This document shows positions 4,651 to 61,736 of a DNA stretch of 64,000 bases, one piece after another. Every line of letters starts with the position of its first letter. The first letter of the stretch is position 1. The DNA is from a virus. The translations under genes were made by a program, and so were the position numbers. The stretch spans positions 64,001 through 128,000 of the IMG/VR virus record IMGVR_UViG_3300045988_167732; one strand, given 5' to 3'. Below the pieces are notes generated by a model. That model did no database searches. It saw nothing but the letters and a program-made list of their open reading frames with translations, and was not told where the DNA came from.

Positions 4651-4897
4651 TGGAGTTAAACTGTATAATGAACGTGTAACGAAAGAATTCCTTAAGTATC
4701 GTAAGGTTCATCGTATTTATTGCAGTAATTGTGATGTTGAAATGAAGCTGGGAGAAATGGCTTATGCTACTTATCCGCCCCTTTATGAGTATGTATGTCC
4801 TAAGTGTAATCACAAAATGACTTCTTCTGTTTTTTATCCTGCAATTGAAGAAGTTTGGGAAAATGAAGATGATATGAGAAGAGAGGTAATGGACTAA
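4640..4897 (+). CDS. zinc-ribbon protein (85 aa)
   Basis: GTG start 8 nt after GGAGG; CSNC...CPKC pairs. Confidence 0.6.
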   Translation: MNTNGVKLYNERVTKEFLKYRKVHRIYCSNCDVEMKLGEMAYATYPPLYEYVCPKCNHKMTSSVFYPAIEEVWENEDDMRREVMD

Positions 4898-5856
4898 TGA
4901 GCAATATTAAGACTTATCAGAATGGCAACTATGTCGTGACCATCGACTTGGATAGCGGAACCAAGACTCGTGAAAATGATTTGGATTTTTTCAAGGCTGA
5001 TTTTCCAGAGTGTTGTGATTATAAAATTACTAACAATTGCGCACAGGGTTGTAGTTTTTGTCATGAGAACAGCACTCCAAATGGCAAACATGGTGATATT
5101 CTTGGGAAACAGGGTATTAAGGTTCTTGAAAGCTTCCATGAATACACAGAGCTTGCAATCGGAGGTGGAGACCCCCTTTCCCATCCTGATTTAATTCCCT
5201 TCCTTCGCAAGTGTAAGGAATTGAATCTTATTCCTAACATGACTGTTCATCAGTTCGCCTTTATGAAGAATCAGGAGCTTATTGAACAGCTTGTTAATGA
5301 AAAGCTCATCTATGGTATTGGTGTCTCTCTTGTTGACCCTCTTCAGCCGCAGTTTCTTAAGACTATTTCTAAGTATCCTAATCTTGTTCTCCATGTCATT
5401 AATGGTATTGTGACGATGGATACTCTTCGTGCTCTTAAGAATCGTGGTCTTAAAATTCTTATTCTTGGCTACAAGACAGTTCGTCGTGGTGAAGAGTATG
5501 TTAAGGAAGATTGGGCTAAAGAACTTGTAGCAAATAAGCAGAAGGCAATCTATGATAATCTTGGTCGTATGATTGATGAGAAGTGGTTCTCTGTTATTAG
5601 TTTTGACAATCTTGCTATTAAACAGCTTGAACCTAAGCGTCTTATGTCTGAGGAAGATTGGAATACTATGTATATGGGCGAAGATTATGGTAATATGTCC
5701 AGTGCTTCTATGTATATTGATGGAGTTGAAATGCAGTACGCAAGAAATTCTTGTGATGTAATTCATCGTTATGATGTTGGCAATAAGACGGTTACTGAAA
5801 TGTATCAGTTCTTGAGAGATTTGAATGGAGAAAACAATAATGAAACAAATTCGTAA
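4897..5856 (+). CDS. radical SAM enzyme
   Basis: CAQGCSFC (CxxxCxxC) cluster motif followed by a GGGDPL SAM-binding-like motif. Confidence 0.8.
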   Translation: MSNIKTYQNGNYVVTIDLDSGTKTRENDLDFFKADFPECCDYKITNNCAQGCSFCHENSTPNGKHGDILGKQGIKVLESFHEYTELAIGGGDPLSHPDLIPFLRKCKELNLIPNMTVHQFAFMKNQELIEQLVNEKLIYGIGVSLVDPLQPQFLKTISKYPNLVLHVINGIVTMDTLRALKNRGLKILILGYKTVRRGEEYVKEDWAKELVANKQKAIYDNLGRMIDEKWFSVISFDNLAIKQLEPKRLMSEEDWNTMYMGEDYGNMSSASMYIDGVEMQYARNSCDVIHRYDVGNKTVTEMYQFLRDLNGENNNETNS

Positions 5857-6801: not shown

Positions 6802-6802
6802 A

Positions 6803-6830
6803 GGGTATAACTGGGTATAAAAGGGTATAA
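6803..6830 (+). repeat. three GGGTATAA boxes at 10-nt phasing
   Basis: GGGTATAA at 6803, 6813 and 6823, ending 2 nt before ATG 6833. Confidence 0.8.
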
Positions 6831-6832
6831 TT

Positions 6833-7303
6833 ATGGTTGATATTAAGTGGCTTTAGACTCAAGAAGGATAGAAAGCTTATTAGACTTGGATAAGAAAATT
6901 AGCAAATCGAGCAGAAGATAGAACAGATATTCCAATTTTAGTAGACACTAACGGAGAAATTTAGGTTTGGGTAACAATAAATAAAAAATACCTATCTAAA
7001 GAACAATTTGAAAAACTCGCTGATAAATCTGATGGTGAAGTTACTACAAAATTAGAATTTAAAACAAAAGATATTATTATAAGAGAGCTTATTTCTATTG
7101 CAAAAAGCAGAGATGCTTTAGCGGATAATGACGATGAAAGAGAACTTTTATGTCCCCTTGTTTCATTGTTTTAGGGAATAGAAGATGCTATTACTAATGA
7201 TATTTGCTATAAAGCTCAAAATGCTAAACAGCTTTTTATAAACAACTTTGAAAAAAATTTAGGAAAAGATGAAAATAATTCTAATAACCTCTTGACAAAT
7301 TAA
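6833..7303 (+). CDS. hypothetical protein (156 aa) with five in-frame TAG codons
   Basis: Hand translation: no TAA/TGA for 157 codons, five TAGs (first at 6854), ends at TAA 7301-7303; absent from the ORF track. Confidence 0.7.
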
Positions 7304-7320
7304 GATACATCTGTTATAGT
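7292..7320 (+). promoter_or_regulatory. sigma70-type promoter
   Basis: TTGACA 7292-7297, 17-nt spacer, TGTTATAGT. Confidence 0.65.
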
Positions 7321-7422
7321 ATCTATTGTCATAAGTAGTTAGACTCTCACAGCAAACTACAAAAAACTTTTATTTTGAAAAAAGGACAAAAAGAGTCTAG
7401 TCCTTTAGAAAAGGAGAAAATT

Positions 7423-9144
7423 ATGTATAACTACAATAATCCCAACAAGAAGAATAACACTAAGGCTTGGGCTCCTAAGTCTGAGAAGCCTGTTACTCAG
7501 ACCAATCGAGTTAGCCGTAAGGCTTCCTTCATGGATAAGGTTGAGAAGACTGCTAAGGGTTACTACACTCAGGTTGCAGTCCCTTCTCTTCCTGCTGATA
7601 AGCAGTACACTTCTAATGGTGCTATTGCATACAAGTCCTCTGGTTCTGCTCTTCTTGATATCAATACTTCCATCTCTGCTCTTCGTAGTCTCCCCGATGG
7701 TACTATTGTGAATAGGTTCCGTGCAGCTTATTCTGAGAATCCTCGTCTCGCTATTCGTTGGCTGTTCTATGCTGGCGATATCCGTGAGGGTCAGGGGGAG
7801 CGCCGTCTCTTCCAGATTTGCCTTAAGGATATGATGAACAATGGTGGTGCTCAGATTGTGGCGAACCTGATTCCTATGATTCCTGAGTATTCTCGTTGGG
7901 ATTATATCTATGTTGTCATGGATAATCCTACTACTAAGCCTGTTGTTCGTGAACTGATTCGTAAGCAGTGGAAGGAAGATATGGCTAATATGAAGAAGGG
8001 CAAGTCCATTAGCCTTATGGCGAAGTGGCTTGATAGTGCTTCTTCTCACAGCCATGATACTCGTAAGCGTGGTCTTAAGACTATGGATATGCTCGGTCTG
8101 ACTGAGCGTGAGTATCGTAAGGGTCTGTCTGCTCTCCGTAAGCACCTTGATGTTGTTGAGCGTAAGATGTCTTCTCAGAACTGGCAGAGCATTGATTATG
8201 AGACTGTTCCCTCTAAGGCAAACCTTAATTACAATAAGGCTTTCCTTCGTAATGATGAGGAGCGCCGTCGTGCCTATCTGAACGCTCTTACTAAGGGCGA
8301 GGCAAAGATTAATTCTTCCGTATCTAATCCTTGTGACATCGTTCATAAGTACTGTGAAAACGAATGGAATACTTATCCTCGTTCTCGTGATGCTGCCCTT
8401 GAAGGTATGTGGAAGTCTCTTCCTAATCTTGTAACCGACGATAGTTCTACTATTGTTGTTGCAGATGGTTCTGGTTCTATGTGTACTACTGTGGGTCGTA
8501 CTCGTATGACTGCTCTTGAGGTTGCTAACTCTCTTGCAATTTACTTTGCAGAGCGTGCTAAGGGTGCATATAAGGGTCGTTACATTACTTTCTCTGCACA
8601 TCCTCAGATGGTTAATGTGAATCACGACTCTTTGTATGAAAATCTTAGGGAAGCTGCTCGTCATAACGAGGTTGCTAATACCAACCTTGAAGCAGTATTT
8701 GACCTGATTCTTGATACTGCAATTAAGAATCATTCTCCTCAGAGCGATTTGCCTAAAAATATTCTGATTATCAGTGATGGTGGTTGGGATTCTATGGTAA
8801 ATATTCGTAATGTTAGCACTGGCAGTAGTGGCTATGGATATTGGGGCTATAACAGCACTCGTGCTACTGCTAAGGAAGCTCCTGCTTTCCTTAAGTCCAT
8901 TGAGCAGAAGTACAAGAACGCTGGGTATGAGATGAGCAAAATTTGCTTTTGGAATGTATGTGGAAATGGCACTACTGGTAACGGTTTCCCTATGACCAAG
9001 AATGACTATGGTATCATGGTTAGCGGGTTCAGTATCCAAACTTTGAAAATGATTCTCAGCGGCAAGACTAATCCTTGGGATGCGCTTATGGATGTTCTTC
9101 TGACTAAGCGTTATGACGCTGTTGAAACTAAGGCTTTTGCCTAA
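7423..9144 (+). CDS. DUF2828-like / vWA-domain protein (573 aa)
   Basis: ATG 7423 after AAGGAGAAAA; motifs YAGDIREGQGERRLF and VVADGSGSM (vWA MIDAS-like); very strong codon bias. Confidence 0.6.
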   Translation: MYNYNNPNKKNNTKAWAPKSEKPVTQTNRVSRKASFMDKVEKTAKGYYTQVAVPSLPADKQYTSNGAIAYKSSGSALLDINTSISALRSLPDGTIVNRFRAAYSENPRLAIRWLFYAGDIREGQGERRLFQICLKDMMNNGGAQIVANLIPMIPEYSRWDYIYVVMDNPTTKPVVRELIRKQWKEDMANMKKGKSISLMAKWLDSASSHSHDTRKRGLKTMDMLGLTEREYRKGLSALRKHLDVVERKMSSQNWQSIDYETVPSKANLNYNKAFLRNDEERRRAYLNALTKGEAKINSSVSNPCDIVHKYCENEWNTYPRSRDAALEGMWKSLPNLVTDDSSTIVVADGSGSMCTTVGRTRMTALEVANSLAIYFAERAKGAYKGRYITFSAHPQMVNVNHDSLYENLREAARHNEVANTNLEAVFDLILDTAIKNHSPQSDLPKNILIISDGGWDSMVNIRNVSTGSSGYGYWGYNSTRATAKEAPAFLKSIEQKYKNAGYEMSKICFWNVCGNGTTGNGFPMTKNDYGIMVSGFSIQTLKMILSGKTNPWDALMDVLLTKRYDAVETKAFA

Positions 9145-11604: not shown

Positions 11605-11828
11605 CGATTGAAAGACTAAGAGATATTCTCAATGATGTAGCAAACGGTGCAAATTGGGAACTATACAAAAACTCATTAGTAGTAATTAGCGTAGAAGATT
11701 CTAGAAACACTGTGGGAAGTAGACCTTACACAAAAGTTCGCTCAGTAGGCATGGGCTTTGATTGGGAAGCAGGTCAATTTAGAATTGAACCTGAAAATAA
11801 ATTAATGGAGGTTAGTAAAAGAAAATGA
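11601..11828 (+). CDS. hypothetical protein (75 aa)
   Basis: ATG 11601 in an ATGA overlap; in frame with ORF 11526-11828. Confidence 0.6.
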   Translation: MTIERLRDILNDVANGANWELYKNSLVVISVEDSRNTVGSRPYTKVRSVGMGFDWEAGQFRIEPENKLMEVSKRK

Positions 11829-12097
11829 ACACTACTCAAGTTGCTTTGTGCATCATCCTTGCTATCGGAGTTTTAACAATTTTCTTTTTAGCAGGAACTA
11901 TTATTGGTGGTATCCATGCTTATTCAAAAGCTTTTGCAGAAGCCGAAGAAACCCATAAAAATTTAGATGAGGCTAAAGAAAGTCTTATTAAATCTTTAGA
12001 AGGGAAAGCAGAAGCACAAAAAGAACTTATTGAATCCTATGAAGAGCTGGTAAAAACTCTTCAAGAAAAAAATAATAAACCCTTGACAGAAAATTAA
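11825..12097 (+). CDS. membrane-anchored coiled-coil protein
   Basis: ORF track; N-terminal transmembrane segment, then a charged helical region. Confidence 0.6.
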   Translation: MNTTQVALCIILAIGVLTIFFLAGTIIGGIHAYSKAFAEAEETHKNLDEAKESLIKSLEGKAEAQKELIESYEELVKTLQEKNNKPLTEN

Positions 12098-12111
12098 TCT
12101 TATGGTATATT
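12083..12111 (+). promoter_or_regulatory. sigma70-type promoter of the large ncRNA
   Basis: TTGACA 12083-12088, 17-nt spacer, TGGTATATT. Confidence 0.7.
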
Positions 12112-12117
12112 AAGATT

Positions 12118-12746
12118 GTCCCAAGGGAAAGGGCGAAAAAAGTGCGGAAGAGATTCCCATTGGTTTGCACTACTCGGGCCTGATAGACAAATCACGTTCT
12201 TACCTGTAAGACATACAATTGAATATTCAATAATAGCTGAGATGCAATGACTTCGAAAGAAGCACCCTTCATAGGAATAGGAACTATGAAGATACTAAGA
12301 GCGTCAAGCTCTCCACCTGAAAGTTAATGGTGGAAATTCTTGCAAGAATCACGAAATCCTACCTTCCGAATTCTTGCTCGGTAGTGTAGGTTGATTGCCA
12401 ACTGAAGGATGTTGGACGAAGAGCGTCGCATTTCTTTAAATGCTAGGACCAGTGGCTCATAGTGAGGTGAACGTCGTCTATTCCTCACCTTTAATAAGAA
12501 TCCGATGGGGGTCGGAGCGCTTGTTATCGTATTTGAATAACCTACGGGTAGGTTGTTCGCAGTTTTACAGAAGACTTGTAAGCACTTGTCCGTCAAAATG
12601 GATAGCCGCAAACGGGAAAGTTTCAATGAGTGTAGGAAGTAATGTAACGGGGAATAACTTCTAAGTCTTTACAATTTATTGAATTAGCTAATTTAATAAA
12701 AGGTCTCATAATTAATTTAATATTGATTATGAGACTATTATTTTTA
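12118..12746 (+). ncRNA. large structured ncRNA of about 630 nt, class unknown
   Basis: Consensus promoter upstream; stops in all frames; G+C visibly above its surroundings; many local hairpins including CTTC-GAAA-GAAG; ends in a GTCTCATAAT/ATTATGAGAC stem plus T-run. Confidence 0.7.
12702..12746 (+). terminator. rho-independent terminator
   Basis: 10-bp stem GTCTCATAAT/ATTATGAGAC followed by TATTATTTTT. Confidence 0.7.
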
Positions 12747-12761
12747 TAATAGAGGTGTAAC

Positions 12762-13247
12762 ATGGATAATTTCTGGAAGACATCATTGGAAAACAAGAAG
12801 AAAGAACTTTCTGAAATTAATAAAGATTTAAACAAACTTACAAAAAAATCTTATGATGAATATATTATGAAAGAACTCGCTCCAAAGCTGATTGGAAAAT
12901 GTTACATTCATCGGGGACATTATATTATGATTGTTCAACCTCCCAAATTGTTAGAAGGAAGATGTGAGGTTAACTATTCTTCTTCATGGGGTTGTATTGA
13001 GATTAACAATTTTGAAAATGAAACACCTTATGGTTGCTATACAGATTCAGAAATTGATTTAGCTCCTTATTATAATGAGGACATTGATTTGTTTTTCCTT
13101 TTAAATTATCCGAAAAATTTTACCCGTTTTCAGCCTATTTCTTGTGACGAGTTTTACGCCAAAATGGATGAAGCGATTTGCGAGTCTAAAAAGAGGATTG
13201 AAAATATGCTGAAAAAGGTAAATCCACGCAAATTTTACAGGTTTTAA
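12762..13247 (+). CDS. hypothetical protein (161 aa)
   Basis: ORF track; SD AGAGGTG. Confidence 0.7.
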   Translation: MDNFWKTSLENKKKELSEINKDLNKLTKKSYDEYIMKELAPKLIGKCYIHRGHYIMIVQPPKLLEGRCEVNYSSSWGCIEINNFENETPYGCYTDSEIDLAPYYNEDIDLFFLLNYPKNFTRFQPISCDEFYAKMDEAICESKKRIENMLKKVNPRKFYRF

Positions 13248-34801: not shown

Positions 34802-36940
34802 ATGAAAAAGAATGATTTCCCCACTAACCCCGTAGCTTTTGCTCAATATGTTTGGGAAAATATTGAAGTTGGAGACACATTGGTTGATAGACTTCGCAAT
34901 GTTTGGCAAGTAACTTCCTTTGTAAGTGACGGCAATCGTAAAGTAAGAATTAACATTAGTTGTACTGACAACGAAGATTTTACGGGTTGTTATAACGGGG
35001 ATAAAAAGAAATTAACTCGTTTTGACCTTGCTTCCAAGCAATATATTTATATTGACAACACAGTTGTTCCTATTCCTGCTGTTGAAGATTGGAATATTAA
35101 AACCTTTGTTCAGAACTATAATACTCTTTGGAGTATCCTTGATGTATTAAAGATTCCAACAAAAGAAGAATGCGCAGATATTTTTTCTATTTTTTATTTA
35201 ACTCAAGAAACTGAAAGAGATTTAGAGGAAAAGAATAAGAAGCTATCTACTTGCAGAACACTTAAAGATTTAAAATCCAAATTCTCAGAATACGATTTAG
35301 ATGGAGACAAGCTTCGAGAAAAATGTGTTAATTGTCTCCCAAAAGAGGACACAAAAATGACAGAAAACGAAAAAAATTACTTCCTTAAAAATAAGGGAAA
35401 AACGGGTGTCGATACCCAATTAAAATCCGCATTTTATTCGCAGGAAGATTTGGATGCCGCTATTGAAAAAATTGGTGACTTCCTTGAAACCCATACAAAT
35501 ACTGCTAAAAACAAATGTAAAGAATCCGTTAAGAAATTTACAGGCTTTTCTGATGAGGATTTGGATGAAATTTGTACACGAGTGGTGGACACTTTTTATT
35601 CGGCTTCCGATTTTTCTAAGAAAACTTTCGACGAATTTAAGAGCTGGATGAAAGAAAAGTATAATAACTGTACAAAAGAGGTTAAAGAAGAATCTAAAGA
35701 GGAACCTAAAACTAAGACTGAAACTGTTAAAGTAAACAATAATCAGTCTGTTATTACCGTTGATAATAATGATACGGATACTGGAACGCATAAGGTTGGT
35801 AGTACTGATACAGAACAGCCAAAGCCTGTCTTTAAGCTCGGTGATGTTGTCTATACTAAGGGAGAATCTGTTGGCTATATTTCTCGTATTGGGTATACTG
35901 ATAGATATTGTTATTATTATTGGACACCAATTATCGTTTCTTCTAATGATAAGACACTTAAACATTTTATGGTGGATGAAGAAAGGGGCTTAACTTATCC
36001 CTATGAAACCCATTATAAGCGTATTGGCAATTACCTTATGTCTGACCTTAATTGCGTTAAGGAAATGGCTCGTATTGATTCTGTTTATAAGTTAAGTGAA
36101 GATAATCTTAAGCAGTTTCCTTATCTTGATAAGTATATAAATAACTTTAAAGATAATGAAGACGAAGAAAACGAAGGAGATACAGAAGATACAACCGACT
36201 TTATTAACAGACCTTTCCATATCGGAGATATTGTAATTGATAAAAATGGAAACGTAGGTTATATTTCTGAAATTTGTTCCAGAGATAATACTTGGTTTTA
36301 TTATTATGTTCCTGTTGTTATTGAACCTAACCATATTGCTTTTAAGATTCAAAAACCTCTCGATGTTACCCTTGAAAATTATATTCAAATTGGAGCATGG
36401 GATTTAACTTATAGTGGAGCAAGAAAAAATCTTTCTCGTTTTAAAGAATTTAAGAATTTATCTTTAACTTATAACAAGGAACTCCCCGAAGAACTTCTTA
36501 AAGAATTTCTTGATAGAAACAAAGAATCCCTTAGTAAAAAGAAGACCGATGAAAAAGATAATAATACATCTACAACAGATAATGCAACACCTCCATCCAG
36601 CAGAAAAGTTGTTAGTGCTGATTCACTTCCTAATTATCTTAGTAAGCTTCATCTTACTGATTCTGCTTATAGCTATGAAGTAAATACTAAACTTACTACT
36701 GACATTGTTCGTAAGCTGAATGAAGTTATCGAAACTCTTGATGATATTATTTGGTATCACCTTCAAGAAAAAGAAAGATAGAACGAATTGAAAGGCACAC
36801 TACCATCATCTGAAAAGGTTAGTAATTATTCCTCTGTTTATAATACAGTTCGAAAAAATGCCGATATTTCATGGCCATCATGGAAAAAGGAAGTTTTTAA
36901 TAATAGTTGCGCTATTTCAACACACGCAAAAAAATTGTAA
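34802..36940 (+). CDS. large hypothetical protein (712 aa) with an internal domain duplication and one in-frame TAG
   Basis: ORF 34802-36781 ends at TAG; the frame stays open 53 more codons to TAA 36938-36940, which is immediately followed by a strong terminator. Confidence 0.7.
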
Positions 36941-36967
36941 TGAAGTAATTGAATCATAATTTATTTT

Positions 36968-37010
36968 AAACTTGTTTATCTCATATCGGATAAACAAGTT
37001 TATTTTTTAT
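36968..37010 (+). terminator. rho-independent terminator
   Basis: 13-bp stem AAACTTGTTTATC/GATAAACAAGTTT followed by a T-run. Confidence 0.8.
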
Positions 37011-37119
37011 TTTAAATTGTACTTGGCACCTTGACTTTTATGTGTTATACTATATATGGGTTAATAGAATTTGCCGTATTGTGCAATTATTAATACTACT
37101 TATGTAAAGGAGATAATTT

Positions 37120-38547
37120 ATGGCTGAATAGAAATAGAGCCTTTATCTTAGAGTTTAGGAAAAATTATCTAATGTTTCTACTGTTAATAGTTATAAAGAA
37201 CTTTGTAAATTACTGGACGAACCTGATTATTCTCGTCCTTCAAAAGCTGCTCAACTTAAAAGACAAGAAAAAGAATGGAAGAAATGTTTTACATGGAGAA
37301 GAAAAAAAGAAAAATATACTTCAATAAAAATAGTTTCTCCTGATGAATATTATTTGGCTATTTTAAAACAGCTTTATCAAAATAGCTCTATTTGGGCTTT
37401 CTTTTCTTTTTTGAATGTTTATAGTCAATATACTAATAACGCAAGACTTTGTGTTTCTAAAGGAGATATTGCTTTAGCCGTTGGTTTACAAAATGAAAAC
37501 TATAAAGATTTTCATGTTTCTTCTTATAGTTACGGTAGAAGATTAGAAGAATATACTTTAGGTTTAAAAGATTCTAAATATCCTTTTGTTACTACTCCTA
37601 AAAAAGAAATTAGAGAACAAAGAAAAAAAGATGATGAATCTGCTTATGGTTTAACTAAACGTACACAAAATTTACTCGATGATTATGATTCTCATACTTC
37701 TAAGCAAAATTATTATCAAGTTGAATCTATGTTAAACAAACTTGAAGAAGAAGGCGCTATTCTCCTTCATAAAACCTTTGTGGGAGGATTTATTGATAAA
37801 AAAGCACTTCCTTTTGATGCTGATTATTCAACTATATATGAAGAAAATGGTAATTTTTATTTGCCTGTTAAAAATGGAGAACCTTTATTAGTTACTTATT
37901 ATGAAAGAGCTTTAACAGATGAAGAATTGGCTAACTTCCTTAACTTACGTGGCTCTATAATGGTTGATTTAAAATGTCATGGATTATCAGAAGTTTTCAT
38001 TTCTGGTCAACAAGATGATTTTAATAAGAAACTTTCTAAATCTTAGTTAATAGAATTTGGTGCTTTATTTATTTACCCTTCTTATTTAATAAATTATTCT
38101 TCCGACCTTGTAGCATTAAATCAATCTTATTATAAAACTCTTATGGCTAATTTTTATAATGAACAGCTACTTAAGAAAAATTTAACAGCTAATAATAAAG
38201 AAACACAACAAAAAATACTTAAACTAAAAACTGAAAGATAGTCTAAAGAAAAAGGCAAGTGCCGAAATACTTTTACTAAGCATGATGGAACTGTTGTGTT
38301 TTCTGATAAAAAAGAAGAAGAAGCAGTACAGCTTTCGCAATATTATGAAGCTTTCTTATACGAAAAGCTAAATAAAGACCTTATTCAACTTAATTTAGAT
38401 AAACTTATACCTCAAAATCTTGAATCTCTTTCTTCTAATTCTACAGAAAAAAGCTCTACTTGGGAAAGCTTGTTTAATAAATCTTGGACTAAAATTAAAA
38501 ATACCGAAAATTATTAGAAAAATTAGATTGTGGTTCCAGATACATAA
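37120..38547 (+). CDS. hypothetical protein (475 aa) with seven in-frame TAG codons
   Basis: ATG after AAAGGAG; ORFs 37354-38046 and 38296-38517 share this frame; no TAA/TGA for 476 codons; TAG at 37129, 37135, 37156, 38044, 38239, 38515 and 38524. Confidence 0.75.
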
Positions 38548-38603
38548 TTTGTGAGCCTCTTTAATTGTCATTTTCCCCTTATTTTTTCTATATTTAATTT
38601 TTT

Positions 38604-38690
38604 AAAAGTGTCCTGACTTTCGTAAGTATAATAATTATTTATAATAATAGAGAAAGTCAAGACACTTTTAAAAATTTTTTCGTAGATAAA
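38604..38690. terminator. long hairpin, probably a bidirectional terminator
   Basis: AAAAGTGTCCTGACTTTC pairs with GAAAGTCAAGACACTTTT (one mismatch), flanked by A- and T-runs. Confidence 0.55.
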
Positions 38691-38718
38691 ATAAGGCTTT
38701 AATGAACTTTTTAGAGGC

Positions 38719-38950
38719 TCAAGAGTTTGTACTTCAGCACCGTTATTTTAAAAACCACACGACAGAAAATGAAAGAAAGGTTAGAGTTTGTTGAAGTGAG
38801 CCTTGCGAACGATTACAAACTCTTACTCCTTTCTTCATTTGGCAGTCGTAACCGCGAGAGGATGTTTGCATTATGAAAGAGAGAGCATTAGCGACGGATG
38901 GAGCGTAATGCGACCATCTTTCATAATGATACAAACACCGCATCACGGTG
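38719..38950 (+). other. G+C-enriched structured intergenic element (candidate ncRNA)
   Basis: Two imperfect helices of about 20-25 bp (38767-38840 and 38861-38930); AAGAGTTTGT (38721) and TAGAGTTTGT (38782) compete for ACAAACTCTT (38815). Confidence 0.4.
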
Positions 38951-38951
38951 G

Positions 38952-39013
38952 ATTATCGGCGAAGCACCTTCGTAATAATAAATTATCGTAATGAAGCACT
39001 TTCGTAATAATAA
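38952..39013 (+). repeat. tandem direct repeat (30 + 32 nt)
   Basis: ATTATCG-N-GAAGCAC(C/T)TTCGTAATAATAA twice, directly upstream of the promoter at 39035. Confidence 0.8.
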
Positions 39014-39034
39014 CAAAAAATCTTTATTAAACTA

Positions 39035-39063
39035 TTGACTTTTTACTCTATATCTGTTATTAT
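39035..39063 (+). promoter_or_regulatory. sigma70-type promoter
   Basis: TTGACT, 17-nt spacer, TGTTATTAT. Confidence 0.6.
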
Positions 39064-39200
39064 ATCTATGCTGAGAAAGATAATTGATAAAATATAAGTA
39101 CCTTTCTTTCGTAACACCAAAATTCTGGAAGTTCTTAGTGAAGTGGAGTGCTTGCACGAACACTAAACTTAGAACTTCCCCTGTGAATGGAGTTTGTATT

Positions 39201-45083: not shown

Positions 45084-45492
45084 GGATTTATAATAATCTA
45101 ATTTATTTGTAAGCAAGCTTAGGACTTGAGTACGGTTTGAATATAATTTGGATATATTTTAATTCTAAAATATGGCGAATTTAATTTAGACTGAAAAGTA
45201 ATAATAATTATAATTAAATTAAAAGAAAAAGCAAAAGAAATAGAAAAAAAATAAAAACAAAAAGAAAATAAATAATTTAATTATAATACATTACAAATAC
45301 AAAAGTACAAAGCTACTAAAAATTAGTAGTATACTTTTACCCAAATGATGATGCAACAAAAAACAGAACGAAATTTATAAGTAATTAATATATAATTAAT
45401 CCATAATTTTGTTTAGTTGTATATCTATTGCTCAAGTATGCTTTATACAACCTAATGATGTCTGTAGTAAGTCAAGAAAAATTATTAAACTC

Positions 45493-45521
45493 TTGACAAG
45501 CTACAGACATTTTGCTATAAT
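45493..45521 (+). promoter_or_regulatory. sigma70-type promoter
   Basis: TTGACA, 17-nt spacer, TGCTATAAT; the spacer arm CTACAGACAT pairs with ATGTCTGTAG upstream. Confidence 0.7.
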
Positions 45522-45563
45522 AATTAATGTAAAGAATGTGAAATGTAAAGAGAGGTGTATGTG

Positions 45564-46302: not shown

Positions 46303-46326
46303 TAAGAAAGAATATGTAGATATAAG

Positions 46327-46362
46327 AAGACCTGACTTTTATAAGTTGGGTCTTTTTTGTTT
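46327..46362 (+). terminator. rho-independent terminator ending the + strand block
   Basis: AAGACCTGAC/GTTGGGTCTT stem (with wobbles) followed by TTTTTGTTTTG. Confidence 0.7.
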
Positions 46363-46671
46363 TGCAATTTTGCTTTGTGGGTGTGAGATGGATGAAAGAT
46401 GGGAGACTTATAAATAAATTATTTATATTTGAGCTTCAATTTTGAAAGATGGGGATTGGGTGGTGTAATTTGATGGGTGGAAAAAGAAATTGATTTTAAG
46501 ATGAAATTTATAAAGAATTGTTTACAAATGAAATGTTGCGTAAATATGAAGTGATGAATATGGAGAGATGAAATTGCTGAATATTTGCTGAGAAGAAGTG
46601 AAAGTAGCGAAGCGGGAAAAAGATTCTCCCTTGTGGTGATTAAAAAGACCCCCCCCGTTGCATCTTAAAAA

Positions 46672-46687
46672 GGGTGGGTGGGTTGGG
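46672..46687 (+). other. canonical G-quadruplex motif
   Basis: GGGTGGGTGGGTTGGG; a second G-run GGGGTGGTGGTGGGG lies at 46815-46829. Confidence 0.6.
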
Positions 46688-46835
46688 AGATTAAAGTGAG
46701 AGAGAAACATAGTGGGACCTTCGCATCCGACGAACCTGAAAAAGTTTTGCCCTTTGATGAGGGTTTATTGAAAGGAAGGCGTTTCTCCTTTCAATTACCA
46801 ATTTTTAATTTTTTGGGGTGGTGGTGGGGAAAACT

Positions 46836-46875
46836 AAAAAATCTCCCCCTTGGAAATTAGAAAAATCTCCCCCTT
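46836..46875 (+). repeat. direct repeat AAAAATCTCCCCCTT x2
   Basis: Copies at 46837-46851 and 46861-46875. Confidence 0.8.
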
Positions 46876-47000
46876 AAATAAGGAAAAAGTTCCCCATCAA
46901 AAGGAAAATAGATTCTCACTGAGTAAGAATCTTAACTTATAGCCACTGAATAACTATAAGTGCTAAGAAGTCTAACCCACCCTCCCTACCAAGACTTCAC

Positions 47001-55332: not shown

Positions 55333-56925
55333 TTAGTCACTAAGAGTAACACGAACTTTGAGCTTGTTCTCCTTGGCGTATTCACAGATTGCCTTGAATT
55401 CGTCCTCGGTGATACTGCGGTTAGACGCGCCTCTTGCTTGAACAATTGCTTTATCTTCGAGTTCAAGAGTAACAAGAGACTTGTCAATCTTATTAGTCTT
55501 ACGAAGAAAAATAATTAAGCAATTCCTCTTCAAGATTTTAGAAATGTAGCTAGCGACACAATGATTCAACTCAGAACCTTCATGCTTAACATCATCGGCA
55601 TTTTTAGGTCTAATTACAGAATACTCCTTATCATTGGTTGTAAACGGCTTGAAGTTCTTGTAAGCGTTTTCGAACAGTTCTTCCTGCTCTTCGGTAAGTT
55701 TGATTTCATAATTGCGAGCTGCAATATCATGAGTCTGTTTAAGATATGAACTGTAAAGAGTTGGTTTCAAATCCGTGGTGATACACATATTAATGTAGTC
55801 ATTAAGTTCCTGAATAAAAGCGTGCAAACTTTTAAATCCTTGATTGATTGCCTCCTCACAAACATAATCCATGAATTTACCAAATGTGTAATACTCATAA
55901 ATGTGGCTGCCTCTACGTCCGTAACCAACTCCCAAGTACCATCTAAGACACTTTCCAAAACTACCTTCGTTGTCATTTTGGACATGATTGAACAGGAGTT
56001 CTTCATCCCAATATTTACTTTTCTGAATGATTCCAATCCACTCATCCACCGTGTAATGGAAGTAGCTTTCGGCAGTGCATCCCGAATCAGGATTTCCATA
56101 ACCATATTCATTAGTTGCGGTTTTAATAAAATCCTGTAAATCAAGCCATTGGGTTGCCACACCAAAATCAGTTACCTTTTTATATTCAGCCTTGGTCAAA
56201 TTGAGAATCTTGTATACAGGAATGGCTTCGGTGATTTTACGGTTGAGTAAGCTTCTTTGGATTTCCTTGGGCGCGGTTCGAAGAATAATCTCCGTAGATG
56301 CATTTCTTTCTAAAGTAAATTTGAATTCAGTAAAATTATAATGAACTCCGATTTGTTCTTGAGGAATGTCATAAAGTTGAGCAATAAAACTTGTGGCACT
56401 ATCTCTCCAAGAGAACTGACAAGGTTCTCCAGATTTGCTGACAGGGGAAGCGTTTTTATCAAGGACTGGAAATAAACCTTCATCGACAAGAATGAAGGAA
56501 CAAGAGAGATTATTTGAAGCGATTCTGTATTTGTAGTTACGAGAAATAGCAGCTCCAAGCGGGAAACAATAACCCACATTAACCCAAAATTCACCTCCTT
56601 TAACATTAACTTCTTTCAACAAGACTTCTTTCATGTTATAGTCATTGATATCAACTGCATTACCAGAAAGAAGGTCAAAATACAGACTTAAATCACTACG
56701 ATTGGAAGCGTAATGGACAATGATAGTTTTCCCATTAGGGGTGAAATCTTTGTTATAACATTCGCTCTGCACACGAGACAGCTCAACCTTTGCGTTTTCA
56801 AGCTGTTCATTGAGCCCCTTAATCAGAGAGTTAAGTTCCTTTTCTTTGGAAGAAGATTCGTAATTCTTGAAGAAGCTCTCATAGTCATGAGTTTTGGTCT
56901 GATAGAACTTAGCAATGTTAGACAT
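55333..56925 (-). CDS. PcfJ-like protein
   Basis: C-terminus SELNHCVASYISKILKRNCLIIFLRK...TLELE matches the PcfJ-like domain pattern; paralog of the 61729 gene. Confidence 0.65.
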   Translation of the reverse strand: MSNIAKFYQTKTHDYESFFKNYESSSKEKELNSLIKGLNEQLENAKVELSRVQSECYNKDFTPNGKTIIVHYASNRSDLSLYFDLLSGNAVDINDYNMKEVLLKEVNVKGGEFWVNVGYCFPLGAAISRNYKYRIASNNLSCSFILVDEGLFPVLDKNASPVSKSGEPCQFSWRDSATSFIAQLYDIPQEQIGVHYNFTEFKFTLERNASTEIILRTAPKEIQRSLLNRKITEAIPVYKILNLTKAEYKKVTDFGVATQWLDLQDFIKTATNEYGYGNPDSGCTAESYFHYTVDEWIGIIQKSKYWDEELLFNHVQNDNEGSFGKCLRWYLGVGYGRRGSHIYEYYTFGKFMDYVCEEAINQGFKSLHAFIQELNDYINMCITTDLKPTLYSSYLKQTHDIAARNYEIKLTEEQEELFENAYKNFKPFTTNDKEYSVIRPKNADDVKHEGSELNHCVASYISKILKRNCLIIFLRKTNKIDKSLVTLELEDKAIVQARGASNRSITEDEFKAICEYAKENKLKVRVTLSD

Positions 56926-56990
56926 AATCAATTTTCCTTTCTTAATTAGACAAAATGTTTGTAGTGACTATATATTAAAGGTAGGAGGGA

Positions 56991-59957: not shown

Positions 59958-60968
59958 TTAAGCTGCGATACGATTCCAAACAGAGTTCAGAATAGGCATA
60001 GTATTAACTGCGACAGCCGTGAACGCTCCTGTGGTAGTAGACTTAGAAGACTTGCGCATCTGAGTGGGATGACTCTCAAAGTCAGAGATAGCGTTCAAAG
60101 CCTTCCAAGCCGTGTTATTAAAGTTCTGGAGGTCATCCTGATTGTAAGCCGTCATAAGCTTTTCAATCATAGCCAGATTACGAATCTGAAGAATCTCAGA
60201 ATCCTCAGTTTTGACAGGAAAGAGTTCACGAGCAAGAGCTTCGAATGCTTCCTTGGAGTAAGGAGTAACTGCAAGCTTTTCAGCTTCAACCTTAAGACGC
60301 TCAAGATAATTGGTATTCTGAAGCAGAATAGTCTTAGCCTGTTCCAGCTTGGCCTGCATAGAATTGCTGTGACGAATACTTACACGATTTTCAGCCCCTC
60401 TGGTTGCACGAGCGATGCAATTAGAACAGAAGATACGGATACTGATGAACATTGCCTGAATTGCCTTAGAGCCATCATGACTATTAAGGAACATCATGGT
60501 GGGTAAGAATTCATCATCCAGAATCTTCATGGGTTCGGTGGACATGGTGATGAAGCTCTTAGCTCCATTAAGTCCATAACTACCAGCAGTTTCAAACTTA
60601 GCACCTCCCAAAGCAAGAGAGTCAAGGAAGTCAAAAGCCTCACGATTCTGAAGGATGTTGTAATTCTTACCAACAATGCCCAACGGAGCATTAGTGTCAG
60701 TACGAATGGTTGCGAACTGGTCAGGGATGATAAAAGGAGTATCAACCAAAATCTTCTGACCATTCCATTCCTGCTCAACCTTGTTTACGAACTGGACAGG
60801 ACGCTTTTCAACGGAGTAATCCAGACCACTGAGCTTGAGAGCGGATTCAAGAGAGTGGACATTCTCAAGAGTGATACCCATATCTTCGTAGTACTTCTTA
60901 CGAGGAGTATTTTCAACAGCTTCCATAACAGCGTTGACTTTCTTAGTATCATAAGCAGCGATTCCCAT
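59958..60968 (-). CDS. DUF932 (phage/plasmid-like) family protein
   Basis: NSHDGSKAIQAMFISIRIFCSNC core and overall layout typical of DUF932/TIGR03299. Confidence 0.75.
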   Translation of the reverse strand: MGIAAYDTKKVNAVMEAVENTPRKKYYEDMGITLENVHSLESALKLSGLDYSVEKRPVQFVNKVEQEWNGQKILVDTPFIIPDQFATIRTDTNAPLGIVGKNYNILQNREAFDFLDSLALGGAKFETAGSYGLNGAKSFITMSTEPMKILDDEFLPTMMFLNSHDGSKAIQAMFISIRIFCSNCIARATRGAENRVSIRHSNSMQAKLEQAKTILLQNTNYLERLKVEAEKLAVTPYSKEAFEALARELFPVKTEDSEILQIRNLAMIEKLMTAYNQDDLQNFNNTAWKALNAISDFESHPTQMRKSSKSTTTGAFTAVAVNTMPILNSVWNRIAA

Positions 60969-61101
60969 AAGATTTCCTTTCCGAGCTTTAAGCTCTAAAC
61001 AAAAAAGTTTTTAATATAATGTGTTGTTTGATTTAAGTTGAGATTATTATAAATCCCAAATCCGCAAATGTCAAGTATTTAAACCAAATAAAGTAAATTA
61101 T

Positions 61102-61266
61102 TTAGTAAGAATACTTCCAAAGTAAGGCAAAGAGTTCTTGCATAAGTTTTTTAGCCTTATCACGGTCTGTTTTAAGCATACAGGTATCTGAACCAATATC
61201 CTCTTTTAACTTAGTGAGGATGTCGAGATAGCTAAGGTCAGTTTCGACGGTGGTTTTAATTTTCAT
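61102..61266 (-). CDS. hypothetical small protein (54 aa)
   Basis: Hand-translated MKIKTTVETDLSYLDILTKLKED...; SD AAAGGAAA. Confidence 0.45.
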   Translation of the reverse strand: MKIKTTVETDLSYLDILTKLKEDIGSDTCMLKTDRDKAKKLMQELFALLWKYSY

Positions 61267-61294
61267 TTTGTTTCCTTTCTGTACTAAAAAGTAC

Positions 61295-61323
61295 TTGACA
61301 AGATTGATGTTGTGTGTTAATAT
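61295..61323 (+). promoter_or_regulatory. consensus promoter antisense to the - strand operon (module A)
   Basis: TTGACA, 17-nt spacer, TGTGTGTTAATAT. Confidence 0.6.
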
Positions 61324-61400
61324 ATGTATAGATGATAAGAAGAATCCTATACTTCTTACTTACCATCTATACATCTTCGTAAAATAATCAGTGGGTGTGA

Positions 61401-61472
61401 TTAATTACGGTTATAGATAATCATTATCTACATAAGATTGTAGAAATAATTAACGTAGAAGATTCTCTACAT
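61401..61472 (-). CDS. leader mini-ORF (23 aa) with TAG at codons 2 and 15
   Basis: AAGGAGG SD; ATG-TAG-AGA...; an in-frame TTG lies 3 codons upstream. Confidence 0.3.
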
Positions 61473-61556
61473 GGCTTTCAACTCCTTTCCTCCTTAGACA
61501 AGGGACAATTATATAACAGTTTATAGGAACTGGTTATATCAAGAAAGAGCAGGATT

Positions 61557-61736
61557 TTATTCCTGCTCTTTTTCTATTGTGTACAAATACTGCTTTCGCT
61601 TTTCTTTGTACTGTTTGTTAATTTTGTACCGATAACTGCCATGAGTCTTACGCTGAATTCCTTCACAGCGGTCATAGTACATACCATCGTACTGGGGATA
61701 CTCTGTGATAGCATTGTTAGGTGTACGTTTAGACAT
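61557..61736 (-). CDS. hypothetical basic small protein (59 aa)
   Basis: ATG 61736 after GGAGGG; the stop lies inside the GAGCAGGA/TCCTGCTC terminator hairpin. Confidence 0.6.
   Translation of the reverse strand: MSKRTPNNAITEYPQYDGMYYDRCEGIQRKTHGSYRYKINKQYKEKRKQYLYTIEKEQE

Follow-up and report, generated by a model that had tools for sequence, protein, structure and literature searches.

The stretch of DNA analysed here, hereafter the window, comprises 64,000 nucleotides (nt) and covers positions 64,001 to 128,000 of the IMG/VR virus record IMGVR_UViG_3300045988_167732. In the list of its open reading frames (ORFs), a gap of 664 nt separates an ORF of 90 amino acids (aa) at 11825-12097 from an ORF of 161 aa at 12762-13247. 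Our results show that this gap holds what is very probably a functional structured non-coding RNA, bounded by a promoter and an intrinsic terminator and followed by the Shine-Dalgarno sequence (SD) of the 161-aa gene. The locus is composed of the following features:

12083 to 12111, plus strand: sigma-70-type promoter from the motif scan, with TTGACA at 12083-12088, 17-nt spacing and an extended -10 element TGgTATATT at 12103-12111
12118 to 12746, plus strand: the whole non-coding RNA, about 627 nt in the window and 590-810 nt in relatives
12118 to 12386, plus strand: 5' domain with multiple hairpins and two sites of whole-helix gain or loss, from RNAalifold on 33 sequences
12387 to 12489, plus strand: repeatable pseudoknotted module of about 100 nt, one copy in the window and up to three in relatives
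12490 to 12670, plus strand: 3' domain, the most conserved part (nucleotide diversity 0.026-0.078)
12673 to 12700, plus strand: AT-rich hairpin P, directly before the terminator, with G-U-compatible changes
12702 to 12736, with a T-run to 12746, plus strand: intrinsic terminator with a stem of 15 base pairs (bp), a 5-nt loop and an interrupted U-tract, from the scan and from conservation
12751 to 13247, plus strand: SD AGAGGUG (12751-12757) and the 161-aa gene, function unassigned, from the ORF list

The promoter had the top score of the scan in the 10-15 kb region (11/12 plus the TG of an extended -10), its -35 element overlaps the last codons of the 90-aa ORF, and it is unchanged in all homologous loci. 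Transcription would start near 12118, judging from the promoter spacing. The terminator is kept in 34/34 locus variants, with changes that are G-U-compatible. Promoter-like matches are abundant in AT-rich DNA (28, against 21.8 +/- 5.1 in shuffles), and the same scan gave 3 terminator-like matches against 2.1 expected; because chance matches are this frequent, the scans alone are little proof, and the weight rests on conservation. The G+C content is 0.39-0.445 in the RNA region, about 0.30 in its flanks and 0.33 window-wide. Predicted folding energy was -181 kcal/mol on the plus strand (z = -4.1) and -150 kcal/mol on the minus strand (z = -2.25), each z score being based on 20 shuffles only. 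A first-pass annotation of this DNA had described a near-perfect promoter inside the end of the preceding gene, a G+C content above that of the flanks and stop codons in all frames, and all three descriptions are borne out. It had also placed a terminator with a 10-bp stem at 12702-12746; the terminator is present there and conserved, and its stem has 15 pairs instead of 10.

The window itself is part of a 220,795-bp scaffold in the metagenome assembly ENA ERZ28659889. Homologs were recovered with two kinds of query, the proteins encoded on either side and DNA patterns, and gave 34 distinct locus variants of 640-858 nt, with limits set shortly upstream of the start site and immediately ahead of the SD. 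The locus is found in 15 IMG/VR viral contigs of 108-216 kb, in 24 metagenome contigs recovered with a 3'-domain pattern, several of them labelled human gut metagenome, and in several ENA and Logan contigs. Within the collections searched, all variants fall into a single clade of phage contigs from the human gut, 110-220 kb long. In 50,697 GenBank phage records neither the RNA nor the surrounding 20 kb had a DNA match, and scans of IMG/VR with a module pattern, a 5'-domain pattern and a relaxed module pattern returned the known clade only, exact-pattern scans being blind to distant homologs. When the covariance model of the module was run on nine extra IMG/VR contigs that matched the relaxed pattern, no module was found, and no part of the RNA recurs elsewhere in the 64-kb window. 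Nucleotide diversity is 0.03-0.13 across the RNA, with a single peak of 0.25 in a variable hairpin, and reaches 0.33 in the flanking protein genes. Since the untranslated region is at least as conserved as its coding neighbours, purifying selection on the RNA is likely. As a by-product of these searches, the 3'-domain pattern also matched 6 unrelated high-GC soil repeats in the metagenome collection. A conserved motif of about 70 nt (GATGAATGAGTGTCTGAAGTTGAGAAGCGGGGAAGGGCG..GAATGGCC..TATGGGTC) was seen in five metagenome contigs of high G+C content (0.60-0.64) whose upstream flanks differ (L060 250-340, L069, L070 2960-3060, L080 and L086 4750-4850); it is a chance pattern match that is unrelated to the phage RNA and belongs to no Rfam family at gathering scores.

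Comparison of the variants gave no sign of a protein-coding function. TAA, TAG and TGA all occur in each of the three plus-strand frames, so that recoding of a single stop codon (genetic code 4 or 15) opens no frame. The window copy contains chance ORFs of 74 aa on the plus strand and 100 aa on the minus strand, which are disrupted in most variants, with indels of 1, 8, about 27 and about 52 nt interrupting them. Among the 34 variants no conserved open frame was found, the longest open stretches varying in frame, strand and length, and variable sites showed no third-position excess (counts of 20/22/20, 35/42/40 and 17/12/15 by codon position).

The structural assignment rests on compensatory changes, G-U-tolerant substitutions and helix-preserving insertions. 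RNAalifold on 14 full-length sequences predicted 175 pairs, 15 of them with compensatory changes on both sides. As a control, helix partners were slid by 1-3 columns: for the 5' domain (12118-12392; RNAalifold on 33 distinct sequences) 99.4% of cells were paired, against 36-47% when slid, with 9 double-change pairs; for the module (24 distinct copies, orthologous and paralogous) the figures were 97.0% and 35-48%; and for the 3' domain plus terminator (12486-12750; 29 sequences) they were 99.3% and 37-47%. In the module, 11/24 pairs change on both sides and 0/500 shuffles matched the observed covariation score, though these changes represent a few ancient events inherited by descent and not dozens of independent ones. 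The region 12486-12750 has only two double-change pairs, because its sequence hardly varies. Several pairs alternate through G-U (12163/12192, GU 19 and AU 14; 12364/12383, UA 15 and UG 16; 12589/12602, UA 13 and UG 16), and plus is taken as the functional strand because such G-U-tolerant substitutions would give A-C mismatches on the minus strand. Variation in length proceeds by whole helices gained or lost. The first-pass description of a densely structured, non-coding phage RNA running from promoter to terminator is thus upheld by compensatory changes, which support helices in the 5' domain and the module, by helix-preserving indels and by the lack of a coding signal in the homologs.

The 5' domain contains five elements for which the comparison was informative:

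12142 to 12160, plus strand: hairpin GUGCGGA-AGAG-AUUCCCAU, with double changes at 12142/12160, 12143/12159 and 12144/12158
12251 to 12262, plus strand: CUUC-GAAA-GAAG tetraloop hairpin, from alignments
12267 to 12291, plus strand: 8-bp hairpin CUUCAUAG/CUAUGAAG with the conserved loop GAAUAGGAA, from covariation
12313 to 12333, plus strand: optional hairpin CCACC-...-GGUGG, from alignments
12342 to 12390, plus strand: duplicable sub-module, consisting of GCAAGAAU (12342-12349) and a long hairpin (12358-12390), from covariation and alignments

Four variants (L014, L015, L061 and L085) carry an inserted hairpin of about 52 nt within the hairpin at 12142-12160, and in most variants the tetraloop hairpin at 12251-12262 gives way to one about 27 nt longer, with the CUUC/GAAG closing pairs retained. 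The hairpin at 12267-12291 covaries (12270/12288, CG 19 and UA 9; 12271/12287, AU 13, GU 10 and GC 10), while the optional hairpin at 12313-12333 becomes CCUCU/AGAGG or CCCUC/GAGGG in relatives and is precisely deleted in several variants. The sub-module is present in two copies in L011, L013, L061, L065 and L071, and its inner stem CCGA/UCGG covaries (12366/12381, CG 24, UA 3 and UG 6; 12369/12378, AU 31 and GC 2). Its 8-nt loop AUUCUUGC (12370-12377) is complementary to GCAAGAAU, which suggests a pseudoknot between 12342-12349 and 12370-12377; this pairing is 99.6% compatible with the variants, and a local palindrome alternative is equally so, the two being indistinguishable. A candidate long-range helix, 12162-12173/12381-12392, clashes with the outer part of the hairpin at 12358-12390, and a de novo search for long-range pairs by column-pair compatibility was swamped by noise, the sequences being too closely related. 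The loop sequence GAAUAG (12275-12280) is also complementary to CUAUUC (12478-12483) in the 3' part of the hairpin C loop of the module, which is invariant across module types. A kissing contact between the two, within one molecule or between molecules, could be formed and is a candidate; no covariation was found for it, both sides being near-invariant, with four variants carrying an uncompensated G-to-A change.

The module between the two large domains varies in number (1-3) among otherwise near-identical phages, and it is the main source of the size range of the locus. In the window, from 5' to 3', it consists of the following parts:

12395 to 12417, plus strand: hairpin A, from covariation
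between hairpin A and the enclosing helix, plus strand: linker AAGAGCG, with the linker motif AAAGAGCG
12421 to 12424 with 12455 to 12458, plus strand: enclosing helix GAGC/GCUC of 4 bp, from covariation
12428 to 12443, plus strand: hypervariable hairpin B, inside the enclosing helix
within the enclosing helix, plus strand: strand J, GGACCAG in the window and GGRYYAGAG across copies
between the enclosing helix and hairpin C, plus strand: the bases AUA
12462 to 12488, plus strand: hairpin C with the loop UGAACGUCGUCUAUU, a 14- or 15-nt loop UGAAYR...CUAUU across copies
12446 to 12479, plus strand: pseudoknot of the J strand GGAC (12446-12449) with GUCU (12476-12479) in the hairpin C loop, from covariation

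Three module types are distinguished, in which the same helices are built from different sequences. Hairpin A is CCAAC/GUUGG in type 1, GCUGAU/AUCAGC in type 2 and GAUAAUGU/ACAUUAUC in type 3, and hairpin C is GUGAGG/CCUCAC, GUAGGG/CCCUAC and GUGUGG/CCACGC, respectively; the enclosing helix is GAGC/GCUC in type 1 and GAGU/ACUU in type 2, with no entry for type 3. Across the three types the pseudoknot occurs as GGAC/GUCU, GGGU/ACCU and GGGUC/GACCU, with pair counts of AU 14 and GC 9 at one pair and CG 15 and UA 9 at another. The covariance model of the module had a single match in the 64 kb, at 108.5 bits, the runner-up scoring 16.4 bits. The idea that the module is a dispersed cis element was rejected, because there is a single copy per genome window and none in other IMG/VR contigs.

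The 3' domain is made up of a series of hairpins:

12492 to 12526, plus strand: nested hairpin
12535 to 12558, plus strand: 11-bp hairpin
12583 to 12605, plus strand: hairpin
12610 to 12623, plus strand: AAAC-GGGAAA-GUUU
12635 to 12662, plus strand: hairpin with the loop AAUGUAACGGGGAAUA

Indels of 1 and 8 nt occur within this domain. In hairpin P, which follows it, a one-base deletion is matched on both arms in L053, L054, L055 and L064. The 3' arm of hairpin P, UAAUUUAAUA, has a second copy in the terminator, in its 5' arm and its loop, and either copy is a possible partner for the 5' arm of hairpin P, the alternative being a helix of 11 bp (12677-12687/12712-12722) in a nearly invariant AT-rich sequence that leaves covariation nothing to test. 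One Logan contig (L052; SRR31228232, 1031 bp, positions 1-240) shows a different arrangement, in which the J strand of the module (GGGTCA) is joined directly to TATGAGACT, the terminator's 3' arm. The entire 3' domain is thereby lost, with about 330 nt missing in all, through either a natural deletion or a low-coverage assembly artefact.

Among the individual helices that had been proposed from the single sequence, CTTC-GAAA-GAAG (12251-12262), CCACC..GGTGG (12313-12333) and CCTA-CGGG-TAGG, now part of the 11-bp hairpin at 12535-12558, were recovered by the comparison. Two others were replaced: in place of GTTG-attgc-CAAC, covariation pairs CCAAC with a GUUGG further downstream, and in place of GACG-aagag-CGTC it pairs GAGC (12421-12424) with GCUC (12455-12458). 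For GGTGA..TCACC a helix does exist at that place, in another register, the covarying helix being GUGAGG/CCUCAC (12462-12467/12483-12488).

The relation of the RNA to the genes downstream is informative for its possible role. The terminator ends 5 nt before the SD of the 161-aa gene. From the terminator to the gene there is one promoter-like site (12723-12750), and transcription from it would begin past the SD, which leaves the promoter at 12083 as the only plausible one, so the 161-aa gene and the 339-aa gene probably depend on read-through of the terminator. The 161-aa protein belongs to no Pfam, PHROG or PADLOC family and has no sequence relative in the PDB at E < 0.006; among 1.84 billion sequences just 10 representatives matched it at E <= 0.001, the weaker matches including large proteins with repeats. 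With a pLDDT of 56 its AlphaFold model is of no use, and a fold search with that model is meaningless. The most distant relative recovered, L047 (ENA ERZ27253193 k141_699174, 1480-1600), lacks the RNA cassette. It encodes an orthologous downstream protein of 160 aa with 71% identity, and a promoter with TTGACA, 17-nt spacing and TGTTACATT lies 78 nt upstream of this gene. Because the same promoter stands directly before the gene in L047, the RNA and its terminator are best described as a cassette inserted in the 5' leader. The layout of the locus fits both a stand-alone RNA gene with a throttling terminator and a very large cis-acting attenuator.

The RNA was compared with 4227 models of Rfam 15, including those for ROOL, GOLLD, OLE, HEARO, raiA, T-box leaders, riboswitches and self-cleaving ribozymes. 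At gathering thresholds there was no match in the whole 64-kb window, and permissive filters gave chance-level matches only (E <=10 on 11900-12900 and E <=5 on the divergent variants L022 and L053), the models concerned being unrelated eukaryotic or CRISPR ones. A search of the window with ARAGORN for tRNA and tmRNA genes was negative. These results agree with the first-pass reading that the RNA carries no RNase P, tmRNA, group I/II intron or tRNA signature, and its class is still unassigned after the Rfam scan, no family matching the window copy or the two divergent variants. Literature searches found no description of such an RNA, and in a survey of candidate structured RNAs in IMG/VR the motifs average 67 nt (PMC10690425). 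Strings such as AUGUAACGGGG and GGAUGUUGG were considered as possibly shared with the GTPase-associated centre of 23S rRNA. The resemblance proved to be chance, and mimicry of 23S rRNA was rejected, BLAST against E. coli rrlH giving short, non-collinear matches only (E 0.09-30).

ROOL is an RNA-only nanocage of eight identical molecules, a homo-octamer. Family RF03087, to which it belongs, comprises phage- or prophage-encoded RNAs of about 580-660 nt with many helices and pseudoknots and a poorly conserved interior, whose function and protein partner are not known (PMC12286853). The present RNA is likewise large and phage-encoded, with many helices and pseudoknots and a variable interior, but it has a copy-variable module, sits in the 5' leader of protein genes and has no nearby tRNAs. 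ROOL and GOLLD are often found near tRNA islands (PMC12286853); here the phage setting is present (IMG/VR viral contigs, phage-type neighbours) and tRNAs are absent from the 64 kb, such proximity being frequent and not obligatory. GOLLD (RF01998) is a large, ornate, phage-associated RNA with one strongly conserved domain beside parts that vary more, and its expression is reported to rise during phage lysis (PMC12286853). Unlike GOLLD, which often adjoins or contains tRNAs, the RNA in the window is without them, and it is conserved at both ends, most of all at the 3' end, and variable in the middle. OLE is a chromosomal RNA of extremophiles and anaerobes that associates with Oap proteins. It (RF01071) is an ornate RNA of Bacillota of about 600 nt, similar in size to the present one, and works with dedicated partners (PMC12286853). 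Among the neighbouring ORFs scanned with Pfam and PHROGs there were no OLE partner genes, and the OLE model did not match.

Other known systems resemble the locus in its layout. ToxIN-type loci (ToxI, CptI, TenpI) consist of a promoter, repeated pseudoknot RNA units, a terminator and a toxin ORF, and the order of promoter, copy-variable units, terminator and an ORF of about 160 aa is shared by the present locus. The units of type III antitoxin RNAs, however, are near-identical tandem repeats of 34-45 nt, whereas those seen here are about 100 nt long, diverged and present in 1-3 copies; Tandem Repeats Finder detected no array in the window copy and only a 12-nt A-rich repeat in a three-module variant. 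The pRNA of the phi29 family is a phage structural RNA with its own promoter that multimerises by loop-loop pairing; it is about 120-174 nt long, lies beside packaging genes and has its own Rfam family. The present RNA is also a phage-encoded structural RNA with its own promoter, but it lies among small early-type genes without assigned function and has no Rfam match, a result that extends to pRNA if its model is among the 4227. Tandem-aptamer riboswitches and T-box leaders are 100-350 nt long and precede many genes of related function, and their number of aptamers is constant among orthologs. With these the RNA has in common a structured 5' leader on the same strand as the gene, with no intervening promoter, a terminator just before the start codon and the possibility of repeated units, but its module occurs at one locus only, not in many genomes as a recurring sensor, and no known family matches. 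As a structured RNA in general, it shows compensatory changes beyond the controls, helix-preserving indels and no coding signal, with few independent events.

We tentatively favour a role in trans, as a multivalent scaffold or decoy, which we consider quite possible though short of probable; size, complexity and variable valency would suit a scaffold or decoy better than a sensor. A host-type RNA polymerase would initiate at the near-consensus extended -10 promoter, which points to strong early expression and an abundant RNA, and would halt at the intrinsic terminator to release a transcript of about 630 nt (in relatives, 590-810 nt). This transcript is predicted to fold into the conserved 5' domain, one to three pseudoknotted modules of about 100 nt and the near-invariant 3' domain, and would itself be the product. 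Its putative binding sites are the modules, with the invariant single-stranded motifs AAAGAGCG, AGAG, UGAAC and CUAUUCC, the module count would determine valency, and the terminator of this leader-located cassette may also limit the polymerase that reaches the downstream genes. In its widest form the proposal, which we put forward with somewhat more reserve, is that of an undescribed class unrelated to ROOL, GOLLD and OLE, with a fixed core and a copy-variable module, which may serve RNA-based self-assembly or multivalent capture of a factor early in the infection of gut Firmicutes, its valency tuned by duplication and deletion of modules.

Several observations weigh against a role in trans. 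In formal terms the RNA is a 5' leader closed by a terminator, as a cis-acting attenuator would be; the downstream genes are without a promoter of their own, and in the RNA-less L047 the same promoter, at 12083 in the window, drives them directly. The family is a narrow one of close relatives, and the compensatory changes represent few independent events, with almost none in the 3' domain. It is conceivable, if in our view unlikely, that the 161-aa and 339-aa genes have the RNA as their 5' untranslated region, and that a ligand, a protein or a tRNA binding to the modules or to the 3' domain controls the terminator at 12702-12746 and thereby expression, as in an attenuator or a riboswitch. Its position directly upstream on the same strand, the 5 nt between terminator and SD, the lack of a usable promoter from the terminator to the gene and the direct use of the same promoter by L047 all agree with this, and the 3' domain, the most conserved part, adjoins the terminator. 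The choice of the hairpin P 5' arm between its own 3' arm and the terminator copy is also reminiscent of mutually exclusive expression platforms, but covariation lends this alternative pairing no support, and the sequence in which it lies is AT-rich and of low complexity. No known riboswitch or T-box comes near a leader that has two large conserved domains and a length of 600-850 nt; a change from one to three modules between near-identical phages is atypical of a sensor; neither in the window nor in other IMG/VR contigs does the module precede any further gene; and no known aptamer or leader family matches. The scaffold or decoy is preferred over the attenuator because of the size, the two large conserved domains, the variable number of modules among near-identical phages and the occurrence of the module nowhere else, and this preference is a guess.

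The remaining explanations are each much weaker. That the transcript is a precursor cut into smaller RNAs, as in a type III toxin-antitoxin locus with a repeated pseudoknotted antitoxin RNA, a terminator and a toxin of about 160 aa, or as in a self-cleaving array, is improbable: the order of parts is indeed that of ToxIN-type loci, but the units are too diverged for Tandem Repeats Finder, are often single-copy and are flanked by large unique 5' and 3' domains, the 161-aa protein shows no sequence relation to the endoribonuclease toxins ToxN, AbiQ, CptN and TenpN and matches no family in Pfam, PHROGs and PADLOC, and no self-cleaving ribozyme family matches. L047 moreover has the gene without the RNA, which would be intolerable for a toxin, and a type III toxin-antitoxin locus was rejected on this ground, on the lack of short tandem repeats and on the lack of sequence relationship to known toxins. 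The region could also be no RNA element at all, but a protein gene that has decayed or been recoded, or a feature of the DNA itself, for instance an origin, a packaging site or a hotspot of recombination. The spurious 74-aa and 100-aa ORFs and the fact that the region is an indel hotspot speak for this, yet the ORFs are broken in most variants, codon periodicity is lacking, every plus-strand frame has all three stop codons, the G-U-preserving substitutions fit the plus strand only, the indels are entire helices and the RNA is conserved as much as, or more than, the neighbouring genes, so that we regard this as highly improbable. Least credible of all is a very divergent member of ROOL or GOLLD, even though size, phage residence, multiple pseudoknots and a variable interior between conserved parts are comparable, since neither covariance model matches even with permissive filters and the tRNA genes that often accompany both classes are absent from the 64 kb. 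The kinship with ROOL and GOLLD to which the first-pass annotation had leaned is one of lifestyle and size only, and membership is not supported by the sequence comparisons. What the RNA shares with them is kind, that of a large phage-borne RNA with multiple pseudoknots, conserved domains and a variable internal part, and we rate it as a new class within this known kind of large, ornate phage RNAs.

The genomic surroundings of the RNA are phage-like, with a DNA methylase, an RNase H-like protein, a DUF2828/VWA protein and many small ORFs without assigned function. The consensus sigma-70 promoter, the strong SD and the protein matches to Bacillus phages suggest that the host is a Firmicute. The DUF2828/VWA gene (7375-9144, plus strand; 589 aa; DUF2828, DUF7788 and a weak VWA match), annotated in PHROGs as 'RNA-binding protein' (phrog_850), lies 3 kb upstream of the RNA and has its own TTGACA promoter at about 7293. 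Its homologs occur in 695 GenBank phage records from many hosts, the best being from Bacillus phages at about 37% identity, and the protein has no sequence-related solved structure. As a partner of the RNA it was rejected, no link having been found and the protein being widespread in large phages without the RNA.

Other features of the window were noted in passing. A TnpB-like IS605 OrfB/Cas12f-like protein of 439 aa (30183-31502, plus strand) is followed by a 343-nt gap (31503-31845, G+C 0.38) in which a guide (omega) RNA would be expected, and Rfam gave no match there. A radical SAM protein of 319 aa (4897-5856, plus strand) has weak matches to prokaryotic viperins in PADLOC (E = 5e-5). Two PcfJ-like proteins and a DUF932 protein are encoded on the minus strand (55333-56931, 59958-60968 and 61729-63996), and these families are commoner in conjugative plasmids and integrative elements than in phages. 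ORF-poor stretches of 470-760 nt, with no ORF of at least 70 aa, lie at 6802-7404, 36782-37353, 38518-39083, 45084-45554, 46303-47000 and 60969-61728; their G+C content is 0.21-0.36, in all cases below that of the RNA, and they contain nothing that matches Rfam at gathering scores.

To our knowledge, only a few classes of bacterial or phage RNA longer than 500 nt have an elaborate conserved structure, namely OLE, GOLLD, ROOL, HEARO and a few others. Since ROOL and GOLLD were recently found to assemble into nanocages of RNA alone (PMC12286853), every further example has gained in value, and the RNA described here would add an independent class from large human-gut phages. A pseudoknotted module present in one to three copies in near-identical genomes is a feature unreported for other large RNAs, and the natural variants already constitute a valency series. 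Being compact, with a mapped promoter and terminator, conserved flanking genes and a relative, L047, that serves as a natural minus control for the RNA element, the locus is directly testable. If a cis-regulatory leader should prove to be the true explanation, it would surpass all those known from phages in size and modularity.

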